A DNA stretch of 64,000 bases from an uncultured Clostridia bacterium. Lineage in GTDB: Bacteria > Bacillota > Clostridia > Christensenellales > UBA1242. This document shows, piece after piece, positions 11,027 through 64,000 of this stretch. A model generated the notes under the pieces. It ran no database searches. It saw only the letters and a program-made list of their open reading frames with translations, and was not told where the DNA came from. The stretch covers positions 48-64,047 of the forward strand of contig CALVIT010000001.1 in the NCBI GenBank assembly GCA_944331845.1, in the 5' to 3' direction. The position numbers and the translations under genes are program-made. Numbering within the stretch: the first letter of the stretch is position 1; every line of letters begins with the position of its first letter.

Positions 11027-12785
11027 ACATTCACATAGCCGTAATAAATATTCATTTAACGAGTCAATATACAAATTTATCTTGTACCTTAGACCTTACT
11101 ATGTGTGGTTAGTGCTAGCAGTGATATTCGCAGTAGGCGGTACGATTTGTAGTATCATAGGGCCTAATAAAATAGGTGAGATAACAAATATTATTGAAGC
11201 GGGAGTGCTGGGCGGAACGGGAATTGACCTAGCAGAAATTGTTAAGATAGGTATCCTACTTATAATTTTGTATGGTGTCAGTGCGCTTTTGTCTTTCTTA
11301 CAAGGATACATTATGACCGATGTCGTTCAAAGGTCTACAAAGAGAATGAGAACTGACATATACGCTAAGATAAATAGGTTGCCTTTATCGTATTATGATA
11401 GTCATACCTTTGGCGACACACTAAGTAGAGTTACTAACGATGTAGATACTATAGGTTTGTCGTTCAATCAGGCAACTGTAATGCTAATATCTGGTGTAAC
11501 ACTTGTATTGGGTGCACTTGTTATGATGTTCATAACCGCTTGGCAATTAGCACTTGTTGCGTTAATTTGTATTCCTATAGGTTCTGGACTAATGTCATTA
11601 ATTTTGAAGTTCTCACAGAAGTATTTTACGAGTCAGCAACAACAAATAGGCGATATAAATGGTATTGTCGAAGAATCTTATTCTGGACATAATGTTGTAA
11701 CTGCATTCAACGCTAAACAAAAAATGCAAGACAAATTTCAAAACACTAATAACAAATTATTTAAGTCTCAATACAAGTCGCAGTTTGTTTCTGGTATAAT
11801 GATGCCTATAATGCAGTTCGTGGGTAACCTTGGATATGTTGTAGTATGTATTGTCGGCGGTGTGCTTTATCTTAATGGACATATACAGATTGGGGCTATA
11901 ATTAGTTTTATTATATACATTAAATTGTTCACACAACCTTTGGCGACTATTGCTCAATCAGTGTCCAGTATGCAGTCTGTAGCGGCGGCAAGCGGAAGAG
12001 TATTTGAGTTCTTAGAAGAGAAAGAGATGCCACAAGAGACACCTAGACTATACTTAGATAATGTAAAGGGCGATGTCAAATTCGAGAATGTTGAGTTCGG
12101 CTATAGCGATGACAAGATGATTATCAAAGGGTTCAATGCGCACGCTTTGCCGGGTCAAAAAATAGCGCTTGTTGCTCCAACAGGGGCAGGAAAGACTACA
12201 CTTGTTAACCTTCTAATGAAATTCTATGATATAAATAGCGGAGATATCAAGATTGATGATGTATCTATTAAAGATTTGTCAAGAGAGAATGTTCATAAAC
12301 TTTTTGGAATGGTTCTTCAAGATACTTGGCAATTCGAAGGTAGCATATATGACAACATAGCATTTAATACACCTAATGCGACTAATGATGATGTTGTCAA
12401 TGCTTGTAAAAAAGTGGGGCTTGACCATTATATAAGAACATTACCACACGGGTATGACACTGTGCTTGATGACACTGTGTCATTGAGTGCCGGTCAAAAA
12501 CAACTATTGACTATCGCTAGAGCTATGGTTCACAATGCTCCATTGCTAATACTCGATGAAGCGACAAGTAGCGTTGATACTAGAACGGAGATAATTATCG
12601 CTAACGCTATGGATGAATTGTCGAAGGGGAAAACAAGTTTTGTTATAGCACATAGATTGTCAACAATCAAAAATGCTGACCAAATTTGGGTTATGGAAGA
12701 CGGCAAGGTTGCAGAAAGCGGTACTCACGATGAGTTATTAAAACTAAATGGTAGATACGCAGAATTGTATAATTCTCAGTTCTAA
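11007..12785 (+). CDS. ABC exporter, fused permease/ATPase subunit (YheH/BmrD-like partner)
   Basis: Overlaps the upstream gene by 20 nt and has an AAGGAGG RBS. Walker A APTGAGKTT, signature LSAGQKQL, Walker B LLILDEATSSVD. Confidence 0.85.
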   Translation: MEQSRNRHSHSRNKYSFNESIYKFILYLRPYYVWLVLAVIFAVGGTICSIIGPNKIGEITNIIEAGVLGGTGIDLAEIVKIGILLIILYGVSALLSFLQGYIMTDVVQRSTKRMRTDIYAKINRLPLSYYDSHTFGDTLSRVTNDVDTIGLSFNQATVMLISGVTLVLGALVMMFITAWQLALVALICIPIGSGLMSLILKFSQKYFTSQQQQIGDINGIVEESYSGHNVVTAFNAKQKMQDKFQNTNNKLFKSQYKSQFVSGIMMPIMQFVGNLGYVVVCIVGGVLYLNGHIQIGAIISFIIYIKLFTQPLATIAQSVSSMQSVAAASGRVFEFLEEKEMPQETPRLYLDNVKGDVKFENVEFGYSDDKMIIKGFNAHALPGQKIALVAPTGAGKTTLVNLLMKFYDINSGDIKIDDVSIKDLSRENVHKLFGMVLQDTWQFEGSIYDNIAFNTPNATNDDVVNACKKVGLDHYIRTLPHGYDTVLDDTVSLSAGQKQLLTIARAMVHNAPLLILDEATSSVDTRTEIIIANAMDELSKGKTSFVIAHRLSTIKNADQIWVMEDGKVAESGTHDELLKLNGRYAELYNSQF

Positions 12786-12828
12786 TTTTGTGATAAATAT
12801 ACTATAAGCGGAATAACGAATTAGTTAA

Positions 12829-12860
12829 AGCGGAATAACAGATAAGTTATCCGCTTTTTT
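12829..12860 (+). terminator. Rho-independent terminator
   Basis: AGCGGAATAAC...GTTATCCGCT stem (one bulge) followed by T6. Confidence 0.7.
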
Positions 12861-12876
12861 GTATCTAATTTAATGT

Positions 12877-13000
12877 AAAAAAACTTATGTAAGTATAAAA
12901 CATATATGTAGGTATAAAAACTTGTGTAGGTATAACAATTATTAGTAGATATAAAATATATAAGAAGCATAACAAAACATATATGTAAGTATAACAATTG
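12877..13000. repeat. About 20-bp periodic degenerate tandem repeat (consensus TRTGTARGTATAAMA), at least 6 units
   Basis: cttatgtaagtataaaa / catatatgtaggtataaaaa / cttgtgtaggtataacaatt / attagtagatataaaatata / taagaagcataacaaaa / catatatgtaagtataacaatt. Looser copies occur at about 13053 and 13098. Confidence 0.65.
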
Positions 13001-13270
13001 TATACAAGGCTAAATTATAATATATATGCTGTTATTTTTATATAAGTTTATTACTATTTGCGTGTAGGGGTATATACAAATTGTATGAGCCTTTATATGT
13101 GCGTAAGTAAATATAGGGAGTCATTGTACGAGAATACAAAAAAACATTTACTAGCATTATAATTAATTCAAAATAAAATTTTCTACAAAGAAACATTTTA
13201 TGATGGGAAGTTAAAGATAATTTTTTGAGATAAAAATACATATTTTATTTATTTTGACATACAATAAATT

Positions 13271-13741
13271 ATGTTAAATTTTATTAAAGAAAATTTGAGA
13301 CTTATTATTACTTGGGTAGTTATTATAGTTGTTGCAGTGCTTGGAAGTATTTTTGTGAACTTAGGTATGGATTGGTTTGACTCATTAACAAAACCTAGTG
13401 AGTGGGTACCTAATTTTGTTATACCTATTATTTGGACTGTAATATATTTATTATTTGCTATTGTATTTATATTCTTATACAAAAAAGAAGTTGTGAATAC
13501 TAAAATAATTGTTTTGGGTATTTTGAATGCGGTATTTAATGTATTATGGTGTTTGGTTTTCTTCACACTCAATCAACTATTGTTAGGCGAGATTGTTATC
13601 ATTATTAATGTAGTTTTGGGTGCTTTATTAGTTGCTGAACTAACAAAAACTCAATTATGGTATACATTTTTGTTGTGGGTATATCCTATTTGGTTGAGCA
13701 TTGCTACTTTATTAAATACTGCTGTTTGGATTCTAAATTAA
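13271..13741 (+). CDS. tspO: TspO/MBR family tryptophan-rich sensory protein
   Basis: Five-TM protein of 156 aa with family motifs: LTKPSEWVPNFVIPIIWTVIY, NVLWCLVFF, VYPIWLSIATLLNTAVWILN. Confidence 0.8.
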   Translation: MLNFIKENLRLIITWVVIIVVAVLGSIFVNLGMDWFDSLTKPSEWVPNFVIPIIWTVIYLLFAIVFIFLYKKEVVNTKIIVLGILNAVFNVLWCLVFFTLNQLLLGEIVIIINVVLGALLVAELTKTQLWYTFLLWVYPIWLSIATLLNTAVWILN

Positions 13742-14313
13742 TATCATTTAATTTATTTCACTACATAATTTTATCATAATGAATAAAGAGTAGGGAGAGT
13801 GGGTACTTTCTCTATTTTTTATATAAAATAGGTTGTAAATAAAATAACATATAATTGAAAGTGTATTCAATTATTATAAATACCTTATAATAAATATCAT
13901 AACACAAATCATATGATAAATTCTATATTATATATATATCATAATATAAATAATATAGTATAAAAATCATATTATTATAATTGTCATATAATATATACCG
14001 CATATTATATTAAATAATGTAATATTTAGTATTATAATAAGTATTGTTATTAATAAGTGTTATCATAAACACCATATAGTAAATACTATATAATTTATAA
14101 ATAAAATATAATTATAAATAACATAAAGATTATAAAAACACATATTAGATTTAAAGTAAAAAATAAAAACTTTCGTCATTATACACAAAATTTTTGGGAT
14201 ATTGTGTTGTTTTTTGTATAATTTAGGGCAAAATATATCATAAACTTAATAAATTTAGTTAGAAAAATTGTTAATTTATGGTATAATGAAATTTATACAA
14301 AGGAAGAAAGTTG

Positions 14314-16887
14314 ATGTTAACTGCACAAATTATTATAATGGCGGTGGTGGCACCGTTGCTTATTTTAGCATATTTATTTGTCAAATTTTATCTAAAAAAA
14401 GACATACCTTCGTGGCTTATTAAAGTATTTGCTGGAGTTTTGACTGCTGTATTTTTTGTTAGGTTTATGTCCGGTAATGATTTGATTAGGTATACGGTTG
14501 GTGGGGTAAGTGATATTTTTGATAACCCATCTACCAACTATTATGCTGTGATATTAGTTTGGTTTACCTATGTCAGTGTATTATTATTGAGTTTGCAACC
14601 TTACTTTAAGATAAAAACAGTCAATAATGTAATTAAATTTTTTGTACTACCTTTTATAATAATTGCGATGTTCTCAATCGTTATTAGTACTAAAGCAATA
14701 CTTGGGGCAGATGCTTATAGTGGAAATAATTTCCGTGGAATACTTATGGCGATAGAACTAAGTCTTATGTTACCACTTGCTGTTGTTGTATTCTGCGAAA
14801 ATGGTATGTTCAAAATTAGCAAAAGTGAGTTAAAATATTTAGCGATATCAATTATTCCTATCTTATTGGCAGTTATTCCAACTTATGCTTTGCAGGCATT
14901 CATAGGCACACCTATACAATTTAATCATGTCAAAGATTTTAATTTCATACATAGAATTGTATTGTATGGTGCTGTCATACTTCCTTTTTTGATTCATTTC
15001 GGGCTAAGAAAGCAAAATGAAGAAGTTATAAGATTTGCTATGCTATTCTTATGTCTAGGGACTTTGTTATCTTATTCACTATACAAAAAGTTTGATGATT
15101 TCGCTTCTATCACAGGTTTACCACTTCATTTGTGTAATACTGCGATGTATATACTTCCGCTTTGTTTACTATTTAAGTGGAGAAAATTATTCTACTTTAC
15201 ATATTTTATAAATGTTTTTGGTGCTTTCATCGCTATGATGTTACCAAACTATGGCGACAATGTAAATTTATTTAGCAGTGATATTGTTAACTTCTACATT
15301 AATCACTACATAGCATTCTTTGTACCTATTTTGCTTGTGTCATTGAAGGTCTTTCCACGACCAAAACTCAAAGAGTTTATTTATTCTATGGTCGCATTTG
15401 CGGTATACTTCATTGTTATCTTGTTCATTAATGCTTGGTTCTCGAATTATGGAAGCGTCGACTACTTCTTCCTTAACTCCGACTTTATCGCCGACAAACT
15501 AGGCGATTGGGCAGAGCGTACAAGAGACATAGTATGGTCATTCAGTATTGGAGAACTGACTTTCACATTCTATCCACTATATCAGTTCCTATTCTTTGTA
15601 GTGTATGTATTTATAGCACTAGGCGTATGGTTTGTATTTGAACAAAGTTATCAAATGGCAGACTTACATGTGGATATGAGAGCAAGGCAGGCAGAAATTA
15701 AATTAGACAAATTAGCGCTAGAATGTAGAATCGCTAACTTAACTACGGAGGAGAAAATGGAGAGAGATAATGCTGTACCAAAGATAAAACTCATTAACTT
15801 CACAAAAAGGTATGGCGAAAGTAATGTGTACGCTGTCAAGGATGCTAACCTAGAGATTGACGGCGGGGAGATATTTGGTTTCTTAGGTCCAAATGGGGCA
15901 GGTAAGAGTACTATCATAAAGTCTATTGTTGGAATACAACCTATTACAGAAGGGCGTATCGAGATATGCGGTTATGATGTCGAACTAGAACAGGTCAAGG
16001 CAAAAAGAGAGATAGGTTTTGTTCCTGACCACTACGCTTTATATGAGAAGTTAACAGGTAAAGAGTACATTAATTATATTGCTGATTTATATGATGTTAG
16101 TCTAGAAGATAGAAATAAGGCAATAGATAAATATGTCAAATTATTTGAATTGCAAGGTGCATTTGACAACCAAATGAAGACATACTCTCACGGTATGAAA
16201 CAGAAGATAACCATAATAGCAGCACTTGTTCATAACCCTAAAGTGTGGATTCTCGATGAGCCACTTACGGGACTTGACCCTAATAGCATTTATCAGGTCA
16301 AAGAGTGTATGAAAGAGCATGCTAAGGCGGGAAATATTGTTTTCTTCAGTTCTCACATTATTGATGTCGTTGAGAAAATATGCGATAGGATAGCAATAAT
16401 CAAAAAGGGTCAAATCCTATTAAATAAGAAAGTCGATGACATTGAGAAAGAAGGTTTGACTTTAGAGAAATTCTACTTAGACACAATTAAGTACGCTAAA
16501 AATGATGCTATCAAAGTTAATGACAAAGATAAAGAAGATAAAGCATCATTAGATGACAAAAATTCACAAACAAATCAAAAGCGAAGTATATGGGAAAGAA
16601 TTTTTAAACGCAAGGGCAATAAGAAAGGCGAGAATCAAAAAAGTATAGAAATTATCTCGGCTGAAGTTATACAAGATAACAAAAATAATGAAGATAATCA
16701 ACCTATAGACAATAATAGTGAGTCTACGACTACAGTAGATAAATTAGAAACTTCTAATGTAAAAGATGATGAGAAAGGTAAAAAAAATACAACTAAGCGT
16801 AAAACTACTACAAATACAACTAATCAAAAAACTACAAATGCTAAATCAAAAAGGGTAACAAATGACAAAAACAAAAAAGGTGAATGA
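14314..16887 (+). CDS. Fusion protein: N-terminal polytopic YwaF/TIGR02206-like membrane domain + ABC-2-type ATPase domain + K/N/T-rich tail
   Basis: About 470 aa of TM helices including LPLHLCNTAMYILPL. This is followed by Walker A GPNGAGKST, signature YSHGMKQK, Walker B VWILDEPLTGLD, and then a low-complexity basic tail of about 150 aa. RBS AAGGAAG lies 7 nt before the ATG at 14314 (the track starts at TTG 14311). Confidence 0.75.
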   Translation: MLTAQIIIMAVVAPLLILAYLFVKFYLKKDIPSWLIKVFAGVLTAVFFVRFMSGNDLIRYTVGGVSDIFDNPSTNYYAVILVWFTYVSVLLLSLQPYFKIKTVNNVIKFFVLPFIIIAMFSIVISTKAILGADAYSGNNFRGILMAIELSLMLPLAVVVFCENGMFKISKSELKYLAISIIPILLAVIPTYALQAFIGTPIQFNHVKDFNFIHRIVLYGAVILPFLIHFGLRKQNEEVIRFAMLFLCLGTLLSYSLYKKFDDFASITGLPLHLCNTAMYILPLCLLFKWRKLFYFTYFINVFGAFIAMMLPNYGDNVNLFSSDIVNFYINHYIAFFVPILLVSLKVFPRPKLKEFIYSMVAFAVYFIVILFINAWFSNYGSVDYFFLNSDFIADKLGDWAERTRDIVWSFSIGELTFTFYPLYQFLFFVVYVFIALGVWFVFEQSYQMADLHVDMRARQAEIKLDKLALECRIANLTTEEKMERDNAVPKIKLINFTKRYGESNVYAVKDANLEIDGGEIFGFLGPNGAGKSTIIKSIVGIQPITEGRIEICGYDVELEQVKAKREIGFVPDHYALYEKLTGKEYINYIADLYDVSLEDRNKAIDKYVKLFELQGAFDNQMKTYSHGMKQKITIIAALVHNPKVWILDEPLTGLDPNSIYQVKECMKEHAKAGNIVFFSSHIIDVVEKICDRIAIIKKGQILLNKKVDDIEKEGLTLEKFYLDTIKYAKNDAIKVNDKDKEDKASLDDKNSQTNQKRSIWERIFKRKGNKKGENQKSIEIISAEVIQDNKNNEDNQPIDNNSESTTTVDKLETSNVKDDEKGKKNTTKRKTTTNTTNQKTTNAKSKRVTNDKNKKGE

Positions 16888-18592
16888 TAATATTGATATT
16901 GACCAAAGTGCTTTGAAAGATAATTATGTCAAAGTCAAAGCGCTTGTTATGATGCAATTAAAAAATAAATTGAATCTAAATTTTTTGAAAAGCAAAAAAC
17001 AAGCATTTTTGCGAATTTCATTGATGGTATTAGGATTCATTTTATTGACCGCTGTTATATATTTATTATTCTATTTAGCATCAGTTTTTAGACTATTTTC
17101 ATTCGGGACACTGGTTCCTGTGAGTGTGCTTGTCGTAGTATTCTCATTAATGCTCGTATTATCTATAATCACTTGTACCTTTGGAATGATGAAAGCGTTG
17201 TATTTCTCAAAAGACAATCAAGTGTTGTTGACTTTCCCTGTATCTAGAACAAAAATATTTGTATCAAAATTCATTGTTTTCTACATAAATGAACTCATAA
17301 AAAGTGTTACATTTATATTGCCACTATTCATAGCGTTCGGGTTAGTCAATCATTTACCTATTTACTTCTATGTATGGCTGTTATTCTGCCTATTTATAAT
17401 AGCATTGATACCTGTCGCATTGGGGGCATTGTTGAGTATTCCACTTATGGCGATAACTATTGTTTTAAAGAAGAATAGAATCGTCGAGATAATATTCACT
17501 GTTATTGCTATCGCATTGATAACCTTTGTTGTAGTAGAGATTATTAAAGCAATACCTGCTGACATTAATATAGTAGGTAGTTGGGGTACATTATTCTGGG
17601 ATATACAGAGTTTCTTACAATCATTTAGTCAAATTTTTTATCCATTTACTGTGCTAACTGAGATGGTTGTAGGTACGGTTATAAATATGACCCCGCATGT
17701 TTTTACAATCAATACTCTCATATATCTTGTGTCTTACTTGGGCACTTTGGCGGTCATACTGACACTTGCATTATTCATATCAAGACCACTATTTTTTAAG
17801 ATGGCATCAAAACCCTTCGAATACCAGAAGAAAGATATCAAAAAACAAATCAAAAATCACAAATATTCTACAATTTTATCAGGTATACATAAGGAAATAT
17901 TAGATTTGTTTAGAAATTCTAACAAAGCATACAATCTATTATTTGTATTTTTGATTATACCTATAGCAATATTGTTATTAAATAAAGTATATTCTGCTAT
18001 GTCAATAAGGTTAATCGGGTCTTATATGACAATAGCATTCAATATATTGATAATGCTCTTGCTAGCATTATCAAGCAGTACAAACTTGAGTAAAGCATAC
18101 AGCGAAGAAGGGAATTCACATTACATATACAAAGTATCACCAAAACAATATTATCAACTTCTTATACCTAAGATTATTGTCAACGGCGTTGTTGTGATTA
18201 TATCACTTATAATAGCGGTATCAATATTGTGTGCTTTCATTAACATAAGTGTAGGTAATGCGATACTCCTAACATTATTTATATTATTTGCTTATATTGG
18301 GCATTTATTTTGGAGCGCAGAATTCGATATAATGAATCCGCAATTCGAACAATACCAAACAACGGGCAATAATTTTAACAACAAGAATGAAAATAAATCT
18401 GTAATTTCAGCATTCGCTATCTCATTTATAGTCGCTGGAGTAGCATACTTTTTTATGGTAGAGAATGTCAATTCTATGTATTATAAGGTACTTATATTCG
18501 CTACAATATTCGTTATATATAGGTTAGTGTTGTTTTTCAAAAAGGTTAACCTATACTACATTAACCCATACAATAAGGAGGTACACAAATGA
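16862..18592 (+). CDS. Polytopic membrane protein, putative ABC-2-type permease partner
   Basis: Overlaps the ATPase gene by 26 nt. At least 10 predicted TM helices; no soluble-domain motifs. Confidence 0.55.
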   Translation: MTKTKKVNDNIDIDQSALKDNYVKVKALVMMQLKNKLNLNFLKSKKQAFLRISLMVLGFILLTAVIYLLFYLASVFRLFSFGTLVPVSVLVVVFSLMLVLSIITCTFGMMKALYFSKDNQVLLTFPVSRTKIFVSKFIVFYINELIKSVTFILPLFIAFGLVNHLPIYFYVWLLFCLFIIALIPVALGALLSIPLMAITIVLKKNRIVEIIFTVIAIALITFVVVEIIKAIPADINIVGSWGTLFWDIQSFLQSFSQIFYPFTVLTEMVVGTVINMTPHVFTINTLIYLVSYLGTLAVILTLALFISRPLFFKMASKPFEYQKKDIKKQIKNHKYSTILSGIHKEILDLFRNSNKAYNLLFVFLIIPIAILLLNKVYSAMSIRLIGSYMTIAFNILIMLLLALSSSTNLSKAYSEEGNSHYIYKVSPKQYYQLLIPKIIVNGVVVIISLIIAVSILCAFINISVGNAILLTLFILFAYIGHLFWSAEFDIMNPQFEQYQTTGNNFNNKNENKSVISAFAISFIVAGVAYFFMVENVNSMYYKVLIFATIFVIYRLVLFFKKVNLYYINPYNKEVHK

Positions 18593-18987
18593 AAAAATCT
18601 GTTATAGTTGCAATCTTTGCAATCTTTGTGGCATCCATAATCGCTGTTGGGTTCTTTGGAATGAAACAAGTAGTATATAATGAGACTGTGTATGTTAGTA
18701 GTATAACTTGTATTAATGATAATGCTACAGATTTTGGGAACTATAAATTAATTCAAATACAATTCATTGATGGACAAGTTAATGGTGTACAATTAAATTA
18801 TAGAGTAGAACCTAGTAATGCTACAAATAATAAAGTGAGATTTGTCTATGACCCTAATCAAACTGTAGCAGAAGTTACGGAATTAGGGGCAGTCATCTTC
18901 CAAAGACCGGGAGTCATAACGATTGATATTCAATCGACCGATGGAACTATCGCTTCTGAGAAAGTGAAAATTGTAGCGATTAGATAA
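18589..18987 (+). CDS. Small N-terminally anchored protein with a possible Ig-like (Big_2-like) fold
   Basis: ATGA overlap with the upstream gene. N-terminal TM segment. C-terminal pattern VAEVTELGAVIFQRPGVITIDIQSTDGTIASEKVKIVAI resembles bacterial Ig-like domains. Confidence 0.45.
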   Translation: MKKSVIVAIFAIFVASIIAVGFFGMKQVVYNETVYVSSITCINDNATDFGNYKLIQIQFIDGQVNGVQLNYRVEPSNATNNKVRFVYDPNQTVAEVTELGAVIFQRPGVITIDIQSTDGTIASEKVKIVAIR

Positions 18988-19239
18988 TTTTAGATAATAT
19001 AAGGAAATGATTTAGACAATTTTATAAAGTAGATTAATGTTTAGGTTAAAATAATTAATATTGATAATCTATATGCTATAATTAATCTAATTTATATCAT
19101 CTACGCAGTTTTATTTATCTTAATAACCAAAATGTGCAAATCATTTTAATTGATTTGACAATAATTGGTAGTTTTGTTATAATGAGTAGGTTATTAATAA
19201 TATTTAATATTTTACAAACAATACTTAAGGAGAAGTTTA

Positions 19240-21404
19240 TGTTAAAATTTACAAAAATTTTGTTAAGTGCTATGATTATGTGCATACCTTTTGTATTAAT
19301 TGCATGCGGTGGCAAAGATGCAAAATTTGAAAGTATGGCAGTTAAAGCAGGCACAATACAACAAACCTATGTTGAAGGTTCAACTATTAATTATAACAAC
19401 CTTGTTGTCGTGGTTACATATAGCGACAAGTCAACTAAAGAGATTAAAAGCAGTGATTTAGACTACACAACTATCGACACATCCATTGTCGGCGTTCAAA
19501 CAATGACAATAACTTATAACGATGGTAAGGTTGACCACTCAATAGATTATGATATTGAGATTGTCGCAAGAGATGCGATTAGTTATGTACTAGAGATTGA
19601 GAATCCTTCATATTTGAGTAATTATAATTCTAACCAAACAACAGGTGGGTACTTATCTCCACAAAAACAAGAAGCATATTATGTTGGAAGCGCTAATAAC
19701 TTTGTGTATAGACCAGAAGTTACAGCAGTAACTATGGCAAATAGTGCTATTATTCTTAATGAATATGTTAGTGATAGTTTCGTTGAACTCAAGAATGGCG
19801 ATAGTTATCAAAGATTGAGCGATGTCAATGATTATGTTGTAGTTAACAACAATACACAAGAATTTGATTTCACACAAGATGCTGTAGGTAAAATTTTTAG
19901 AATTAATGTAACTATTGATGGTTATGTACCTATGGAAGGAAATCAATATTCAACAATGGAAATAAAAGTTGTTGATGGGTGGAATGTATATTCCGCTAAA
20001 GATTTGTACGCTTTTGATGACAGAGAGATGTCTCAAGGAATTCGTGAACAATACAATATTGATAACACTGTTTCAGGGTTAGTATTACAATCAAATATTC
20101 AAATAAATAAGGAAGATATTTTAGACGATTTCTTATTTAGTGATGAAGAGTGGGCGACAATCGCTAAAGCAAAAAATGAAGCACAATATAACATATTAGT
20201 TGAGAACAATATTGATGGTACACTCAAAGATAAAGTCGCATTATTTGAAAGAACACTTGATAAGAATGAAACTTTCACAATATATGGTAATTATTACACA
20301 ATAAGTTCTGAGAAAATACCTTATGCAACTATCGATACTAAAGGTAATTTTATACCAGGTGGAATCAATGGGCATTCAGAATTATTCTACGCAGTAGGTA
20401 CTAACGATGTAACTCAAGAAGAAAACTACAAGAATAATACAAGTTTTGTTGTTAATAACATTAGTTTCTTAGGAAATGCTAACAAGTCAAATGCTGGAGA
20501 AGGTACTGAAGAATTATTAACTACAGTTAAAGCCGGCGGTATTAGACTGGTTAAAGTTGGTAATACAAATACTGAATTCAACAATACTATTGTTAGGTCT
20601 CATTATATTAGTTTTTTAGCTAATCACGATGGCGATACTTATGAGATATCTCAAGCAAATGCTAAGACAACATTGAATTATGTTATATTTGACGATTCTT
20701 ATAATTCAAATATCTATAGTTGGGGTGGTGGACTTATGTACATTAACAATAGTTCTATCACTAATGCTGGAGGTCCTGCCATCATTGCAGACCATGTATA
20801 CAACAAGAACAAAGAGACAGTGGACGATGGCATAATTTGTGAAATCATCGTCAATAACTCAACTATTGAATCATTTGTCAATGGTACTGAATCTTGGTTT
20901 AAGCAAATGAACGCTACTGAATATGTAAGTTTATTCCAAGCAGTAAGTAGTGGTGTTATCCAACCACAATCAAATAATACTAAGACTTTAGCAGTAACTA
21001 AAGATGGTTATCCTTACATTAATATACAATGCCTATTCAAACATTCTTCCGCTGAGAGTGCTACTTCACTTCCTATTAGAGGTAAATTGACAATCGATGG
21101 AGTTAAAGTGATTGACTTCGAAGAAGAAGATATGGTATTTAAGGCAATGTCAGCGCAAGCATCAGCGAATGGTGCACCATTATTCACAGTTGATGCACAA
21201 AATACTTTGACAAGTGCTATAGGCAATATTGATTTAAGTTCAAATCCAATAACTGGTAGTTTAATAAGTGCACAAGGTGCATTGACCGCTGATAGTCCAT
21301 TCTTTGACACTAATGCTAGTGAAATCGGTTTGTATTTCCCTATTGAGAAAAATCAAGGATTTATGGGCATTGCATTAGGTTACTTTAATGTAGCACAAAA
21401 TTAA
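19240..21404 (+). CDS. Large lipoprotein with an N-terminal Big_3-like Ig domain and a beta-helix-like region
   Basis: AAGGAG RBS 7 nt before the ATG at 19240 (the track ORF starts upstream at 19134). Signal MLKFTKILLSAMIMCIPFVLIAC with lipobox LIAC. The pattern YVEGSTINYNNLVVVVTYSDKSTKEI...VGVQTMTITYNDG is Big_3-like. Confidence 0.7.
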
Positions 21405-21421
21405 ATAATTTTATAAATTAA

Positions 21422-21457
21422 AGGCATATTAGTTATCAAATTAATATGTCTTTTTTA
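21422..21457 (+). terminator. Rho-independent terminator
   Basis: AGGCATATTA...TAATATGTCT stem (one G-U pair) followed by T6. Confidence 0.65.
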
Positions 21458-21746
21458 TTTGATAATCAAGACTTATTGATGATAAAAATTTAGTCCTAAT
21501 ATTTATAAAGAATGTCAAAATTTATTTATTTATATATTTTGACAAAACACTACTTGAAGTTGTGTAAAAGTTAAACTTAATTATACTCTAATAGGTGAAA
21601 TCATAACACGAAGTTTATAATAATTTAAGTGTGTCGCAAATATATTTTTGATACTAATTTCCCAAAAATCTATTAAATACAAAGAATTTTAAGTGTGTTG
21701 TTATAAGAAAAAATTCTATTAATTTAACAAATCGCATTAAAATTAT

Positions 21747-21776
21747 TTGACTAAAAAATAAATATTGTGATATACT
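21747..21776 (+). promoter_or_regulatory. Sigma-A promoter of GLUG paralog 2 (TTGACT, 18 nt, TGaTATACT extended -10)
   Basis: TTGACT at 21747-21752 and TATACT at 21771-21776 preceded by TGa. The same architecture and a 20-nt identical core occur at 57595-57633. Confidence 0.65.
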
Positions 21777-21829
21777 AAAATTAACGAACAAAAGAAAGGA
21801 GAGAGAAATTATGTTACAAGAGAACAAAA

Positions 21830-24640
21830 ATGCTAGGGGGGGGGGGGCGTACTAAGACCCAAGAAATAGGGCAAACTAGCGACAAAATAATACATAATGA
21901 ATTAACCAATAAAAAGGTAAATAGCATTAATGATAACAAAGCAATCAATATTAATGATTACAACAATATAGAGAATAATAACTCTAATAATATTGATAAA
22001 ATCTATAAAATCAATAAGGTAAATTATAAAAATTGTAATTCTAATATAGATACTTATAATAAATTAGTTACAAAAAAGAATAATACATTTATAAAAACTG
22101 CGCTACTTATCGTATCGTGGCTTTTTGTGGTTGTATTAAGTATCTTTGTTTTATGCAGTGCTAATGCAAATTCAAATATGAATAAATTAAATACTCCTAA
22201 CAATGCTATAGCGGTAGGTAGTACAACAGATGATGGAACAACTGCTTCAAGTTTTGCAGGCGGTACAGGAGACCCTGACGACCCATATCAAATAGCAACG
22301 CCTATGCAGTTAAGATTATTATCAATAGATAGTAGTTATTGGGCAGATAGTTTTATACAAACAGCGAATATAACTTATACTACTGATAGTTGGAATCCTA
22401 TAGGAAATGCAACAACCAAATTTACTGGTAATTTTAATGGTGGTGGATATGTCATTAAATTTGATAAACAAATTTCATTTAGTAATTTTACTGGGAAGTT
22501 ATATTCAGGTTTATTTGGATACGTGCAACAAGGAGAACTTCTTAATATTAGCGTCAAATGGGAATCAGGCATTAATGCATCTGTAGATTTGAGTGGTATT
22601 GATGACATTGAACCCGAAGATATGCAGAAAGCAGGGAATTATAATGCTTATGTAGGAGGTATTGTTGGATATGCAATCAATGAAAATATATATAATTGTC
22701 AACTTAGTGTAGGAGAGATTATTGTTCAAGGAAATGTAAATAATATCTATGGCGGTAGCGGATGGGTTTACGCTGGTGGGATTGTAGGTTATGCTGTTTC
22801 AAATTCAATAATTAAGGGGTGTAAGAATGCAGGTATGGTATCTGCCTCTGCTAATGTGAATCCCCCATCTTGGGATCCATATGGCGCTGAAAATGCATTT
22901 GCTTATTCTGGCGGGATAGTTGGCTATGGAGAATGTAATATGTACAATTGTTTAAATCTAGGTGAAACTGATGCTGATTCTCGTAGTACTACTTATGGGG
23001 AAAATTTGTATTCATATTCCGGTGGAATAGCAGGGGTGTTAAATGGTGGAGCAATTTATAATAGTTATAATGCTGGAAATTGTAGCGTGAGTGGAAGTTA
23101 TTATTTCTACCTTGGTGGTATAGCTTCTGTAGCAGAATCTGTTTCCATTGTTAATTGTTTTAATGTAGGTGGTTTTGAGCCTAGTGGCATTGCACTTATG
23201 GCAGGAATATCGGGGAATGCTTCAGGAATAATTCAAAATTGTTTTAATACAGGTGATGTATCTAATTATTATGGAGATTATGGTAATTCTTCGGGGATAT
23301 ACAGAGGAACGGCAACAGCTGAAAATTGTCAATTTAGTAGTCCTAATGAAGAAGACAATATAGATGGAACAACTTATAATGCTGATTTAACCTCTAATCT
23401 TTTTCAACAAGAAAACACTTTTACAAACAGCGAAAATAATATGTGGCATAGTTCTTCTTATTGGGATTTTACAAATGAGTGGAATATTGATACTCGTGAA
23501 GGCATTAGCGAGAGCGAAAGAGTTAATAGTGGATATCCATATCTTCGTGCTATGGAAGAATATGCTATCACCTACACAGCAGGCGAAGGTACTGGGGATG
23601 AGAAACTGATATATTACGGACTTAAATCTTCTTCGCCACAAGCAACATTACCTAATGGCACAGCAAGCGAAATAGAGTTTGTAGCACCCGATGGAATGGC
23701 ATTTGATTGTTGGGTTGATGAAAGTGCTCAAACATATCAAAGTGGGCAACAAGTTACTTTGACAGAGAATTTAGTACTAACTGCTCAATGGAAAGTACCT
23801 TATATCGACTTTAATATTGCATTAGATTTTAATGGCGGAAAAGGTGGTACTGTTACACAACTTGAAGTTAAACAATCAGTACCACAAAAAACACAATTTG
23901 CGACTAATGAACTACCTACAAGAAGCGGGTATACATTTAATGGGTACTATACTTCTCAAACTAATGGTACAATGTATGTAAATAGTGCTGGGCAAGTCGT
24001 AAAAACTAATACAAGTGATTACCTAACACAAATACCAACATTATATGCTCAATGGGTAGCAAATACTTATACTATTGTATTTAATTCAAATGGTGGACAG
24101 GGTCAAACAATGCAGTCAATGTCAATGACTTATGACACACCAAAGAATTTGACAAAGAACGCATATAGTAGAGATGACTACACATTCATAGGTTGGGCGA
24201 CAACTAAAGAAAGGGCAGACAGTGGGCAAGTAGACTATGTGGATGAAGCACAAGTTAATATTGTAACTACTAACAATGATACAATCACACTCTATGCGGT
24301 ATGGAAGTCAAACTATGTAGGAGTTACATTCAATATCACAACGAATGTAGGGGTTATATTCAATGTCTATGATAGTGATAATAACTTTGTACAACAAATA
24401 TATATAGGTAAGAGCAAAAATAATGCAGAGCAGACTATAAGTACACAATTATTAAAAGGTAAGACTTACACAATTAGAATGAGTGCGTTCTCTTCTGCTA
24501 ATATAACATTAGATAGTATTAATTCAATGTCTGGGGTATCAATGAGTGGTAGGACATTGACTATCATAGTTAATGAGAGCAGTAACACAATTACAATGAA
24601 TGTCAGCGGTTACACTTTCGGTAATGGTATCATTGTGTAA
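21830..24640 (+). CDS. Giant GLUG-repeat surface protein with Listeria-Bacteroides (Flg_new) repeats. The likely true start is ATG 21811, out of frame at the G12 tract.
   Basis: N/K-rich N-terminus, then the TM/signal anchor ALLIVSWLFVVVLSIFVLCSANA, GLUG-type units (AGGIVGYA...NC.N.G), and GYTFNGYY / YTFIGWAT Flg_new repeats. The RBS AAAGGAGAGAG serves ATG 21811, which reads MLQENKNARGGGAY-stop with 12 G. Confidence 0.85.
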   Translation: MLGGGGRTKTQEIGQTSDKIIHNELTNKKVNSINDNKAININDYNNIENNNSNNIDKIYKINKVNYKNCNSNIDTYNKLVTKKNNTFIKTALLIVSWLFVVVLSIFVLCSANANSNMNKLNTPNNAIAVGSTTDDGTTASSFAGGTGDPDDPYQIATPMQLRLLSIDSSYWADSFIQTANITYTTDSWNPIGNATTKFTGNFNGGGYVIKFDKQISFSNFTGKLYSGLFGYVQQGELLNISVKWESGINASVDLSGIDDIEPEDMQKAGNYNAYVGGIVGYAINENIYNCQLSVGEIIVQGNVNNIYGGSGWVYAGGIVGYAVSNSIIKGCKNAGMVSASANVNPPSWDPYGAENAFAYSGGIVGYGECNMYNCLNLGETDADSRSTTYGENLYSYSGGIAGVLNGGAIYNSYNAGNCSVSGSYYFYLGGIASVAESVSIVNCFNVGGFEPSGIALMAGISGNASGIIQNCFNTGDVSNYYGDYGNSSGIYRGTATAENCQFSSPNEEDNIDGTTYNADLTSNLFQQENTFTNSENNMWHSSSYWDFTNEWNIDTREGISESERVNSGYPYLRAMEEYAITYTAGEGTGDEKLIYYGLKSSSPQATLPNGTASEIEFVAPDGMAFDCWVDESAQTYQSGQQVTLTENLVLTAQWKVPYIDFNIALDFNGGKGGTVTQLEVKQSVPQKTQFATNELPTRSGYTFNGYYTSQTNGTMYVNSAGQVVKTNTSDYLTQIPTLYAQWVANTYTIVFNSNGGQGQTMQSMSMTYDTPKNLTKNAYSRDDYTFIGWATTKERADSGQVDYVDEAQVNIVTTNNDTITLYAVWKSNYVGVTFNITTNVGVIFNVYDSDNNFVQQIYIGKSKNNAEQTISTQLLKGKTYTIRMSAFSSANITLDSINSMSGVSMSGRTLTIIVNESSNTITMNVSGYTFGNGIIV
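21836..21847 (+). repeat. Poly-G tract (12 G) in the 5' coding region
   Basis: Counted directly: G at 21836-21847. It lies between the RBS-linked ATG (21811) and the long ORF. Confidence 0.95.
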
Positions 24641-33056: not shown

Positions 33057-33629
33057 ATGAAAACAACATATAAAAGATGCCCTAGATGTGAATTAAATTA
33101 TATCAAAAAGGGTGAAGATTATTGTAGCGTTTGTATCAATGAGATGAATTCTAGAAATGATAGTTTGAATTGTGATGTCGACCTTGAGTTGTGTCCTATC
33201 TGCAAAACTAATTACATTACCGAAGATGAGATTATGTGTGCTTCTTGTGCTGCGGAGAAAGAAGCCGAAGGCGAAGATATTGATGATATCGACATCTCCG
33301 AATGGAACGAGTATATCAACGAAGATGGTATAGAGTTAGACAACGAAGAAGATGAGAATCTTGGACCAATGGCATCTATTGGGAATATCGATGATGGGTA
33401 TGATGCAGGTATGACAAATGACCTTGATATGGATGACATTTGCGATTTGAATTTTGATGAAATCGATGATATGGCGAAAGATGAATTCAGCGCTGATTTA
33501 GAAGAAGATGAAGACTACGAAGACGACTTTGAAGACGACTTCGATAATGATAGCGATGAAGACGACGATGATGACTTTGACGATGATATTGATGATGATG
33601 ACGATGAAGACGACGACGATGATAAGTAA
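33057..33629 (+). CDS. Double zinc-ribbon protein with an extreme poly-acidic (D/E) C-terminal tail
   Basis: CPRC...CSVC and CPIC...CASC pairs in the first 65 aa. The last 120 aa or so are dominated by D and E (DDDDDFDDDIDDDDDEDDDDDK). Confidence 0.6.
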   Translation: MKTTYKRCPRCELNYIKKGEDYCSVCINEMNSRNDSLNCDVDLELCPICKTNYITEDEIMCASCAAEKEAEGEDIDDIDISEWNEYINEDGIELDNEEDENLGPMASIGNIDDGYDAGMTNDLDMDDICDLNFDEIDDMAKDEFSADLEEDEDYEDDFEDDFDNDSDEDDDDDFDDDIDDDDDEDDDDDK

Positions 33630-40304: not shown

Positions 40305-40820
40305 TTAATTATTTAAAGTGATATTTTTCTTTTTTGTTGTGCGTTTTTTTGTAGTGCTTTTGGGGGTAGAGATGTTAGATGACTTATTGCTTATAGAATT
40401 AGAAGAAGGAGTGTCATTAGATATTGTCAAAGTTATATTTTGTGGCGAGGTAGTGGCATTTTGTTTGTTACTTATATCCTTAGAATCAACTGATGACTCT
40501 TCGCTTTTTGTAGTTCGTGTATCACTTGTTATATTATCTTCTAATGTCGTATTGACGCTATCTTTTGCATTTTCGTTTCTCATTGAATCAGTTTTAGATT
40601 TTTTCGCTTTTTGGGGAAGCAAAGATAATTGCCCTTTTTTGATTAGCGTGTATGCTAGGAACCAAAGACCCGCTAGTCCTATTATTGTGTAAATGAATCG
40701 ACTAAAAAAATGTGATTGTGTTCCAAATATACCTGCGATTAAATCAAATTGAAATACACCTATACAAAACCAATTTATAGCACCGACAATTATAATTATC
40801 AAACTAATAAAATTAAACAT
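40305..40820 (-). CDS. DUF378 family membrane protein with an S/T/K-rich C-terminal tail
   Basis: The AGGTGA RBS favours the internal start MFNFISLIIIIVGAINWFCIGVFQFDLIAGIFG (DUF378 signature GAINW...FQFDL). The track's upstream extension has no support. Confidence 0.7.
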   Translation of the reverse strand: MFNFISLIIIIVGAINWFCIGVFQFDLIAGIFGTQSHFFSRFIYTIIGLAGLWFLAYTLIKKGQLSLLPQKAKKSKTDSMRNENAKDSVNTTLEDNITSDTRTTKSEESSVDSKDISNKQNATTSPQNITLTISNDTPSSNSISNKSSNISTPKSTTKKRTTKKKNITLNN

Positions 40821-40966
40821 ATTATCACCTACATTAAGTTTTGACATAAATATTTTTTTTAAACAAAATTGTAGGGAATTCGTAGGCTTTGTGTGCTTTT
40901 GTAATGGTAAATAACAAAATCGCATTGATTTACATATATTGATAAAGAAATTTAAGTGAGGTTTTG

Positions 40967-42070
40967 ATGAATTTTTGTAATTATAATAAATGTAATTGTT
41001 GTTGTAATCAATCAAATGTTGATAAGATAATTAAATGTCAAAAAGGTGTTAATGGGGCGACAGGTGCGACAGGGCCTGCAGGTCCTACCGGTCCAATGGG
41101 ACCAACGGGTCCAACAGGCCCTGCTACAATCACTGTGGGGACTATTACACTTCTACCTGCTGGGTCTACTCCAACAGTTACAAATAGCGGAACTAATCAA
41201 GTTGCGGTATTTGATTTTGGCATACCTGAGAGCGTTACGGGCCCAACGGGGGCAACGGGGGCGACAGGTCCAACAGGAGCTACAGGTGAGCAAGGTGAAC
41301 AAGGGGTACAAGGGATACAAGGCGAAGTGGGACCAACGGGCGCTACGGGACCATCAGGTAACAATGTATTTAACCCTTATGAAATATATGTAAGAAGCAA
41401 TACTGTTGGGGGAATAGGAACTCAAAGCAATCCATTACCTAGTATAGAAGACGCATTACAAGTTGTCGCTAATAATGGCACAATATATGTCTACGATGGC
41501 ACATATCCTATAGATACAACTAATACCATATCAAAGAATAATATCACATTGACTGCTAAACCAAATGCGACAATATTATTGACTTCTAATGTAGTTCCTT
41601 TCTTAATAACAGGCAGTGGAAATACGCTTGAAGGATTCACAATGACAAGTGACAATGTATATCCTAATGAGTTCATACAGATAGGTGGGAATAATAATGT
41701 CATACGGCACAACATAATTTATGGTCCTACGCAAAGTGGAAGTTCAGACACTTGGGTAGCGAATAGGGGTGTAGTGACTCAAGCGAGCACGCAAAATAAT
41801 TGGATAGATGACAATATCTTCTACTCTTTAAGACAAAGTGGATACTTGAATCCTAATTCTACAGGATATATAACTCATAATGTTGTATTTAATACAAGGG
41901 GTTGGGTAGTAGACAGTGCATTATTTCAATTCTCTGGGAATTCTTGGGGTGAACCAGAAAATGCTGTTGATATTGCTCTATTGAGTGGTACGACTTCGGG
42001 TGTGCCTTATGCTTCAGTCGCAGATTTACAACAAAATAATAGTAATGCAAATATAAGCGACCAAAGATAA
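40967..42070 (+). CDS. Collagen-like triple-helix repeat protein with a C-terminal right-handed beta-helix-like domain
   Basis: Cys-rich N-terminus (NKCNCCCNQ). Two G-x-y runs (GATGATGPAGPTGPMGPTGPTGP and GPTGATGATGPTGATGEQGEQGVQGIQGEVGPTGATGPSG) flank a spacer of about 35 aa. The C-terminal part carries parallel beta-helix-like repeats. Confidence 0.8.
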   Translation: MNFCNYNKCNCCCNQSNVDKIIKCQKGVNGATGATGPAGPTGPMGPTGPTGPATITVGTITLLPAGSTPTVTNSGTNQVAVFDFGIPESVTGPTGATGATGPTGATGEQGEQGVQGIQGEVGPTGATGPSGNNVFNPYEIYVRSNTVGGIGTQSNPLPSIEDALQVVANNGTIYVYDGTYPIDTTNTISKNNITLTAKPNATILLTSNVVPFLITGSGNTLEGFTMTSDNVYPNEFIQIGGNNNVIRHNIIYGPTQSGSSDTWVANRGVVTQASTQNNWIDDNIFYSLRQSGYLNPNSTGYITHNVVFNTRGWVVDSALFQFSGNSWGEPENAVDIALLSGTTSGVPYASVADLQQNNSNANISDQR

Positions 42071-57603: not shown

Positions 57604-57633
57604 TTGACTAAAAAGTTTTATATGTGGTATACT
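57604..57633 (+). promoter_or_regulatory. Sigma-A promoter of GLUG paralog 3 (TTGACT, 18 nt, TGgTATACT)
   Basis: TTGACT at 57604-57609 and TATACT at 57628-57633 preceded by TGg. Same layout as 21747-21776. Confidence 0.65.
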
Positions 57634-57691
57634 AGCAATAATAAACAAAACAAAGGAGAGAGTGTATTATGTTACAAGAGATGAAAACGCT

Positions 57692-57702
57692 GGGGGGGGG
57701 GG
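57692..57702 (+). repeat. Poly-G tract (11 G) in the 5' coding region
   Basis: Counted directly: G at 57692-57702, 21 nt after the RBS-linked ATG at 57669. Confidence 0.95.
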
Positions 57703-58020
57703 CGTTCTAAGACCCAAGAAATAGGGCAAAATAACACAAAAATAATACATAATGACTTAACTAATAATAAGTTAAATAACAATCAAAGAAACGATATAAT
57801 CAACGATATTGACAACTCAAATTGTGAGAAAAAAACACATACAACTAACATAAATAATGAGAATCAAGCAAAAAGTGTCAGTGAAATTGATTATAAGGAT
57901 ACTTATAATGAAGTTAGAACTCTAAATACAATAAATACAAATAATAAAATAAATAAAAAACTAAATAATGCACACAATATTACCGAGATTGAATTTGCTA
58001 GAGACGGTGCAGATTATAGT

Positions 58021-63699: not shown

Positions 63700-64000
63700 T
63701 AAGTGAGAGTATTTAAGTATAATTAGATTATAATTAGGTATAGTTATAGTGTAAGTATTTGATTATAAGGTATAACATAATGTATACAATATGATAATTA
63801 AGTATTTAATAGCATAATCAAGTATACAATAAGTTAAATTAAGTATACAATATGATAATTATGTATTTAATATTATAATATAAAGTGTTAAATATGTAAT
63901 TAAAAGTATTTATAATACGAGATATTGCTACTAGATATTATCTCTTGCACTCTTAAATATAATATTGTAGTGGTAATAATATTTGTTATGGGTTAAGAAT

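Follow-up and report, generated by a model that had tools for sequence, protein, structure and literature searches.

The stretch of DNA analysed here, referred to as the window, comprises 64,000 nucleotides with a G+C content of about 31% from an uncultured Clostridia bacterium (assembly GCA_944331845.1, contig CALVIT010000001.1, positions 48 to 64,047), and it contains two genes for GLUG-repeat surface proteins, gene 1 (para1) and gene 2 (para2), in each of which a short leader runs into a long homopolymer of G before the body of the gene begins. The promoters, Shine-Dalgarno (SD) sequences, and reading frames of both genes lie on the forward strand. The promoter of gene 1 at 21747–21776 consists of TTGACT, a spacing of 18 nt, and the extended -10 element TG-n-TATACT (10 of 12 matches, with the TG present), and the SD sequence AAAGGAGAGAG follows at 21795–21805, its GGAG core ending 9 nt before ATG 21811. 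From this start, ATG#1, which is linked to the ribosome-binding site (RBS), a leader open reading frame (ORF) of 14 codons, MLQENKNARGGGAY, occupies 21811–21855 in the 12-G state; its codons (ATG TTA CAA GAG AAC AAA AAT GCT AGG GGG GGG GGG GCG TAC TAA) enter a homopolymer of exactly 12 G at 21836–21847, the proposed slippage site, and come to a dead end at TAA 21853–21855, a zero-frame stop two codons beyond the last GGG. Direct reading thus confirms the anatomy on which the original prediction of a slipped-strand switch had been built, namely a strong RBS, ATG 21811, a run of 12 G, and a TAA after 14 codons.

The body of gene 1 lies in the adjacent frame, also as predicted. The main ORF stays open for 930 codons after the tract (21848–24640) and is listed as a 936-aa ORF at 21830–24640, in the +1 frame relative to ATG 21811. 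In the encoded protein, an N/K-rich cytoplasmic tail is followed by a membrane helix, by GLUG repeats and Flg_new repeats, and at the C-terminus by a beta-rich domain that also occurs in gene 2. The tail covers 83 residues between the tract and the helix, among them the peptides TKTQEIGQTSDK and IIHNELTNK, and leads to a hydrophobic core, TALLIVSWLFVVVLSIFVLCS, followed by ANA (22097–22159), which we read by eye from the sequence as a signal anchor or signal peptide. The sole in-frame start 5' of the tract is ATG 21830 (ATG#2, 21830–21832), whose frame matches that of the main ORF only when the tract has 12 G (or 9 or 15). As the original prediction had noted, this codon has no usable RBS; it stands 28 nt from the SD sequence, is preceded only by AAGAGAA, and falls within the translated leader. 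The next in-frame start past the tract, GTG 22127, sits inside the membrane helix, so initiation at or before the tract is needed to keep the export signal. Reading the frames by length confirmed that a tract of 11 or 14 G fuses ATG#1 to the body, while 12 G places ATG#2 in frame and 13 G leaves no start.

Gene 2 carries a second copy of the same cassette. Its promoter (57604–57633; TTGACT ... TG-g-TATACT) is the same as that of gene 1, its SD sequence AAAGGAGAGAG (57652–57662) is identical, and its RBS-linked ATG 57669 opens a dead-end leader ORF of 13 codons, MLQEMKTLGGGAF, in the 11-G state (57669–57710; leader MLQEMKTL, TAA 57708–57710). The homopolymer here is a G11 at 57692–57702, and a length of G10 or G13 would fuse ATG 57669 to an open frame of 1998 codons (57703–63699), which starts RSKTQEIGQ... 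and encodes a giant GLUG-repeat protein with a hydrophobic helix at 58282–58344, again read by eye. Just 5' of the tract the main frame is shut by TGA 57682–57684, and no start follows until ATG 58021, 106 codons on. In promoter, RBS, ATG, MLQE leader, and tract the two cassettes match exactly or nearly so, and they share the next 24 nt (CTAAGACCCAAGAAATAGGGCAAA), while their surroundings have diverged. Inside the N-terminal extension of gene 2, an internal GGAGGT stands 6 nt before the in-frame ATG 58048 (58036–58050) and is a possible tract-independent start that would give a shorter cytoplasmic tail. This GGAGGT-ATG is also kept in a related allele from another metagenome, L035 (443–457), where a TAG stands between extension and body and the equivalent of ATG 58048 was taken as the start by the gene caller. 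Gene 2 looks like a cassette joined onto an older start.

Both tracts are far longer than the composition of the window allows. G runs of at least 12 are expected 1e-4 times in 64 kb, which bears out the earlier statement that such a run is improbable, and runs of at least 11 were observed twice against an expectation of 5e-4. The longest G run in 200 shuffled sequences was 10 (mean 6.3). Apart from the G12 of gene 1, the only G runs of at least 8 in the window are the G11 at 57692–57702 and a G8 at 685–692, and the window has no C runs of at least 6.

The stretch between each tract and the first alternative start is open over 93 codons in gene 1 (chance P about 7e-5) and over 106 codons, up to 58021, in gene 2 (P about 4e-5), while the other two frames hold 9 to 26 stops over the same stretches. 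These results indicate that the stretch from tract to body is coding, and initiation upstream of the tract is therefore required at least part of the time or in part of the cells. The off-frames end 2 to 8 codons past the tract and the dead-end leader ORFs have 12 to 19 codons, whereas the bodies are intact over 930 and 1998 codons, and in most copies the main frame offers no other start that could be used. In gene 2, as well as in two further alleles described below (L034a and L034b), a main-frame stop lies immediately 5' of the tract and no start codon follows for 25 to 106 codons. We also compared the N-terminal tail of the window with that of allele L031 by codon position; the differences numbered 14, 15, and 21, with 10 synonymous against 27 non-synonymous codons, which points to a fast-evolving tail and adds little to the open-frame argument.

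The products of all leader-bearing genes are paralogues of one GLUG-type family. In gene 1, Pfam matches were found to GLUG (PF07581; 22.7 bits, cut-off 20.5) and to Flg_new (PF09479; 62.3 bits), the Listeria-Bacteroides repeat, together with a match to TIGR02543 (35.7 bits), and gene 2 matches GLUG with 137.7 bits. The assignment of the products to the GLUG and Listeria-Bacteroides-repeat class rests on these Pfam scores above the gathering score and on the N-terminal helix read by eye. Paralogous GLUG or Listeria-Bacteroides-repeat proteins with an N-terminal membrane helix belong to the class usually placed under switches of this kind. A sequence search of the PDB with the protein gave no match, and the exact products of gene 1 and gene 2 are not on record.

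Comparison with relatives, which the original prediction had suggested as a check, revealed a tract that is kept at the equivalent site and varies in length. Three protein searches over 5.8 billion clusters recovered no more than five relatives of the N-terminal region, and the cassette is present on the contigs of four of these. Six related leaders from five other samples carry G11 to G14 at the equivalent site, with diverged flanks. In all, there are seven independent leader alleles (with L032 and L033 counted as one), or eight leader sequences when the L003 variant of gene 1 is included; their tract lengths are those of the assembly consensus, and some of the contigs have low coverage. In all eight leader sequences the tract starts 23 to 27 nt past the RBS-linked ATG, and one length class alone is in frame.

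Three phases were seen among these sequences. One G too many is present in five alleles: gene 1 of the window (presumably sample SAMEA6814688), L031 (ERZ16268295), and L032/L033 (ERZ17292905 and ERZ16268236), all with 25 bases from ATG to tract, G12, and ATG#2 in frame; gene 2 of the window (presumably SAMEA6814688; 23 bases, G11); and L034b (ERZ24773316; 27 bases, G14). One G too few is present in L034a (ERZ24773316; 24 bases, G12), which lies on the same contig as L034b, and in L003, another assembly of gene 1 (ERZ28614525; 25 bases, G13), which has no start in frame. The remaining allele, L035 (ERZ24773262; 25 bases, G11), is in frame with its RBS-linked ATG. In L035 (P0077) this ATG reads MLQEMKNARGGGHSKTLEIGQNNTKIIHNDLT... 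(MLQEMKNARGGGHSK..., MLQEMKNARGGGHSKTLEIGQ...) in a single frame over 637 codons, but for one TAG, 108 codons in, where the window has GAG; the fused product that had been predicted for gene 1 is very close to what this allele encodes.

The promoter hexamers are conserved in gene 2, L031, L033, L034a, L034b, and L035, and the RBS (with close SD variants) and the ATG in all leaders, while the leader codons and the post-tract sequence vary by subtype. ATG#2 is confined to para1-type leaders; the equivalent codon is ACG in gene 2 and L035 and ATA in L034b, and in L034a the only downstream ATG falls inside the membrane helix. A distant homologue, P0002 (L036), has neither a G tract nor a Gly run, which implies that the tract is not needed for the protein.

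Some of the relatives carry further homopolymers. The gene of P0003 has a second, internal G14 in its GLUG-repeat body, in the AGGIVG motif (L032 765–778, L033 782–795), which is an expansion of GCG-GGG-GGG and breaks the frame by +1 in both samples, so that this gene has two potential switches in series. An in-frame, unexpanded counterpart of that tract is the G8 at 685–692 of the window, in the same GCG-GGG-GGG context (...GGIAGGADS...), inside a third GLUG gene, which runs off the left window edge (frame 2, open over 2–1525); the sole other contig that covers this gene begins inside it. In P0002, an A11 (L036 70–80) begins 14 nt after the ATG (MKYETKKKS, in frame) and may be an analogous homopolymer at the equivalent gene position. 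On the L034 contig, the region 11983–12103 contains an intergenic G14 that follows a terminator-like hairpin downstream of a cation-ATPase gene. Beyond this run the contig ends in about 100 nt that are unusually rich in G+C, with no Rfam match; a promoter-proximal tract, a structured RNA, and an assembly artefact are all conceivable here.

The MnmG protein of the window is 88% and 87% identical to those of two metagenome-assembled genomes (MAGs) of uncultured Clostridia/Eubacteriales, in agreement with the placement in Bacillota that the original prediction had made from the letters, and more distant relatives are MAGs of rabbit, goat, and horse gut. In the two nearest MAGs (10-kb flanks), no GLUG gene, leader, or G run of at least 8 was found at the syntenic site. 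Exact-pattern scans for the leader found nothing in GTDB genomes, in JGI metagenomes (two patterns), or in IMG/VR viral contigs.

Two assemblies of gene 1 differ in tract length. Five contigs (ENA ERZ28614525, sample SAMEA6814688; Logan assembly of ERR4096348) match the window with 100% identity, and the window and these contigs appear to come from the same sample. The contig L003, which covers 11126–22130 of the window, differs by two single-nucleotide polymorphisms (SNPs) and one indel, an extra G that makes the tract G13, and is otherwise 99.97% identical; with G13 neither ATG is in frame with the body of gene 1. Both SNPs are located just past the tract (L003 10780–10800, window 21905–21915) and correspond to the allele of L031 (aacctataataagg). 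This match suggests either a second co-resident allele or recombination between cassette copies, and a second allele of gene 1 may thus coexist in the sample. The two Logan contigs from ERR4096348 end 67 and 60 nt short of the tracts, which is compatible with length heterogeneity and proves nothing; breaks of the ENA contigs fall within both GLUG genes.

Taken together, at least two GLUG-repeat surface-protein genes of this genome, as well as paralogues in related gut Clostridia, are headed by a shared cassette, in which a sigma-70-type promoter and a strong RBS precede an ATG, about eight leader codons, the poly-G tract, and a conserved N-terminal tail. The runs exceed what composition allows, each tract lies between start and body, the off-frames end early while the ORF is intact, and length and phase differ among alleles (G11 to G14; phases 0, +1, and +2), the last as judged from consensus sequences only. 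It is probable that the tracts are hypermutable contingency switches acting on a family of surface-protein genes. A long G run would gain or lose a G at replication through slipped-strand mispairing, and since the tract sits between the sole well-placed start and the gene body, each change of one nucleotide would move the body into or out of frame. For gene 1, G11 or G14 would allow full translation from the RBS-linked ATG 21811 (ON). At G12, the state of the window, ATG 21811 would lead to the 14-codon dead end and the body would be reached only through the RBS-less ATG 21830, with weak or no expression; at G13 there would be no start codon (OFF). Gene 2 would be out of frame at G11, its state in the window, and ON at G10 or G13, and a shorter form may still be made from ATG 58048. 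The population would then be a heritable and reversible mix of cells that show or hide each of the large, presumably surface-exposed, proteins.

The slipped-strand switch of the original prediction is thus strengthened by the paralogous copy, the six related leaders, lengths from G11 to G14, the G12 and G13 versions of one locus, and the three phases. The G12 of gene 1 is not necessarily OFF and may be weakly ON. All three para1-type alleles are G12, and ATG#2 is found only in the para1 subtype, both of which hint that G12 is not a null state. In these leaders, ATG 21811 with an RBS and ATG 21830 without one stand in different frames, and if the second ATG is used, gene 1 may have three expression states, by analogy with two-start repeat switches.

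Several observations weigh against a reversible switch. All three independent para1-type alleles have exactly 12 G, a uniformity greater than a hypermutable tract should show unless this length is selected or a mutational optimum, and no para1 allele with G11 or G14 was seen; gene 2 is G11 in both assemblies (the window and contig L005), and its internal SD-linked ATG 58048 could free its expression largely from the tract. The sole in-frame allele, L035, lies on a contig covered 2.2x, carries the nonsense TAG 108 codons in, and owes its restored frame to two extra pre-tract bases relative to gene 2 and not to the G count. In addition, Illumina metagenome assemblies of low coverage can misjudge the length of a homopolymer by one base.

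The genes might instead be kept one G out of frame and be expressed by recoding at the RNA level, which we consider unlikely. RNA polymerase slipping on the C12 template would give transcripts with one G fewer or two more, or the ribosome would shift +1 on GGG-G, and the outcome would be constitutive low expression with no heritable switch. Such recoding would account for the fact that most alleles, including the internal tract, are in the +1 phase: five of the seven independent leader alleles and the internal G14 of P0003 all have one G too many (binomial P for at least five of seven in one given phase, 0.045), although this P becomes borderline if the freedom to choose the phase is taken into account, and the para1-type alleles have common ancestry. 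The out-of-frame phase is also not conserved, with L034a and L003 at +2 and L035 in frame. Runs longer than the RNA–DNA hybrid of 8–9 bp can realign without mismatch, which favours slippage, while documented elongation slippage in bacteria concerns A/T runs, and G/C runs are poorer substrates. Rescue of frameshifted poly-A genes by slippage in Buchnera, cited in PMC2831843, is a precedent in favour. Against recoding, there is no stimulatory hairpin or conserved structure after the tract (leader folds gave z scores of -1.1 to -1.9 relative to shuffles), and no stop or known hungry codon adjoins the shift site.

The tract might also be stable and simply encode three or four glycines, with gene 1 translated from ATG 21830, gene 2 from the SD-linked ATG 58048, and ATG#1 giving a short upstream peptide. 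The G12 of the window, L031, and L032/L033 (counted as three samples) is indeed in frame with ATG 21830, and the GGAGGT located 6 nt before ATG 58048 in gene 2 is kept in L035. However, ATG 21830 has no SD sequence and lies within a translated leader ORF, whereas the strong RBS and ATG#1 form the most conserved part of the cassette. Stable polyglycine with downstream starts fails for gene 2, L034a, and L034b, since these lack a main-frame start 5' of the tract and yet have 25 to 106 open codons after it. The homologue P0002, which is without a tract, is also without a Gly run; a run of 12–14 G at 31% G+C is not neutral glycine coding; the internal G14 of P0003 breaks the frame; and L003 has G13. 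A stable tract is accordingly quite improbable.

An error of length calling, by which real tracts are reported one base too long and the genes are ordinary ORFs from the RBS-linked ATG, would explain why removal of one G restores the frame in six leader sequences out of eight and at the internal tract of P0003. It would also fit the different lengths in two assemblies of apparently one sample, the contig breaks near the tracts, and the low coverage of L034 (5.9x) and L035 (2.2x). PMC9187656 cautions that G-tract lengths in databases are unreliable and reports an Illumina artefact on G templates. In the synthetic G11/C11 controls of that study, 94–97% of molecules had the right length, with omissions (2.7–5%) exceeding additions (0.5–1%), so a systematic gain of one base is the unlikely direction of error. 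Illumina chemistry adds one base per cycle, the same correction would break the frame of L034a and L035, and the window agrees base for base with five independently built ENA and Logan contigs; we therefore regard a pure artefact as very unlikely.

Decay of the paralogues into pseudogenes through indels at a fragile homopolymer, with no adaptive switching, is the most doubtful explanation, as the two frame-breaking tracts of the P0003 gene, the nonsense codon of L035, and the lack of a GLUG gene at the syntenic site of the nearest MAGs are set against ORFs of 930 and 1998 codons that are intact at 31% G+C with the tract as their sole defect, and against the conservation of tract, promoter, and RBS over diverged paralogues and samples, where an unselected G12–14 would be expected to erode.

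Other devices were considered and rejected. That all alleles are held in the +1 phase was dropped after L034a (+2) and L035 (in frame) had been found. An invertible promoter was set aside; upstream of either gene there are only short, imperfect, A+T-rich inverted repeats (74–92% complementary, 13–23 nt). A riboswitch, attenuator, or frameshift stimulator was set aside likewise, as the folds of three leaders are no better than those of shuffled sequences, and Rfam gave no match in the leaders, its only match in the window being an L10 leader.

Phase variation by slippage at homopolymers is a well-known mechanism, including in Gram-positive gut commensals. Closest in biology to the poly-G switch proposed here are the sortase-dependent pilus genes bbr_0113 and bbr_1889 of Bifidobacterium breve UCC2003, in which intragenic runs of G10–12 switch by replication slippage; the reference length is not the majority in the population, and the ON length is enriched in the mouse gut (PMC9187656). 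As in the window, a Gram-positive gut commensal carries several loci per genome that govern a surface structure, giving combinatorial states, and the tract of the first gene lies between the secretion signal and the body, with the reference ORFs split and the second one lacking an active start. However, B. breve belongs to the high-G+C Actinobacteria, whereas a G12 is far more anomalous in a Clostridia genome of 31% G+C. Its tract comes after the signal peptide, while the tract here lies eight codons past the ATG and before a long cytoplasmic tail and membrane helix, and its product is a pilin rather than a GLUG-repeat protein. Heterogeneity and in vivo enrichment were measured in B. breve.

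In Gardnerella piotii, nanH3 contains a poly-C of 8–14 just past the signal peptide, about 100 nt into the ORF (bioRxiv 10.1101/2020.09.16.300947). It resembles the genes of the window in having a homopolymer near the 5' end of the coding sequence for a large protein, secreted or of the cell wall, with most lengths leading to truncated peptides of about 40 aa and with a majority length that differs between strains. It differs in being a single gene of an Actinobacterium, whereas here a family shares a cassette, and in that its length variation was determined by clone sequencing.

Campylobacter, Neisseria, and Helicobacter carry several tracts per genome, with ON and OFF states set by length modulo 3. 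In the poly-G/C contingency loci of C. jejuni, N. meningitidis, and Helicobacter (e.g., hmbR; PMC3786947, PMC8355987), as in the genes studied here, long G/C runs lie in the frame of surface or surface-modifying genes in A+T-rich or moderate genomes. These organisms differ in being Gram-negative pathogens with measured switching rates, in which the tracts lie in unrelated genes with no duplicated cassette. Other repeats serve similar ends. In lic1 of Haemophilus influenzae, CAAT repeats follow start codons in two frames and give strong, weak, or no expression, and the para1-type leader similarly has two ATGs in different frames before its repeat, one of them with a good RBS. In the opa genes of Neisseria, CTCTT repeats lie in the leader-peptide coding region of a paralogous family, so that, as here, each paralogous surface-protein gene has its own repeat in the N-terminal leader region. 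Both differ from the tracts here in a repeat unit of 4 or 5 nt as opposed to 1 nt; moreover, the use of ATG#2 is presumed, and ATG#2 is absent from gene 2, L034a, L034b, and L035.

Within Bacillota, inlA of Listeria monocytogenes encodes a surface protein and is inactivated by frameshift at a 5'-proximal homopolymer (poly-A), but its tract is a short A7 with low reversion, whereas the G11–14 tracts here belong to a length class tied to much higher slippage. Homopolymeric tracts have been described as a general regulatory device that is favoured at the 5' ends of genes, with poly-G/C generally under-represented (Orsi et al. 2010, PMC2831843). As far as we have checked, what is new is the lineage (uncultured low-G+C gut Clostridia), the GLUG-repeat family, and the arrangement in a duplicated cassette of promoter, RBS, leader, and tract. 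Our literature search found no work combining GLUG with phase variation, in line with the original prediction, which was aware of no such switch in GLUG-repeat proteins of Bacillota.

Elsewhere in the window, A+T-rich intergenic tandem arrays were found at 63782–63903, just 3' of the giant GLUG gene (six copies of 20-nt units), and at 12875–12997 (about five copies of 19-nt units), and an imperfect GAT/GAC/GAA-rich tandem repeat at 33507–33624 forms the acidic D/E C-terminal tail of a 190-aa ORF (33057–33629). An ORF at 40964–42070 contains collagen triple-helix repeats (Pfam Collagen, 45.5 bits), and its start overlaps that of a minus-strand ORF (40305–41015) by about 50 nt. The 858-aa ORF at 14311–16887 joins a TMEM164-family membrane domain to an ABC ATPase domain, and the ORF after it encodes a 576-aa multi-pass membrane protein (12TM_1).

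Members of the GLUG family are split by gene callers or given a wrong start (at ATG 21830, at ATG 58021, at TTG 6001 in L034, and at an ATG inside the membrane helix), and assemblies break at these genes, which leaves the family nearly invisible in protein databases. In existing metagenomes, the tracts are a marker of within-host population dynamics that can be counted from reads. Were recoding to prove the correct explanation, it would be a case of programmed recoding on a G run in a portable 5' cassette of a Clostridia surface-protein family. Phase variation in gut Bacillota has so far been found mostly to act through invertible DNA, the inverton being the usual switch in Clostridioides and Bacteroides, while contingency genes based on repeats have been described mainly in Gram-negative pathogens, in Mollicutes, and in a few Actinobacteria. 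If the poly-G switch proposed here is real, an uncultured low-G+C lineage of gut Clostridia would vary its surface by the strategy of Campylobacter and Neisseria, presumably in response to antibody, phage, or niche pressure.

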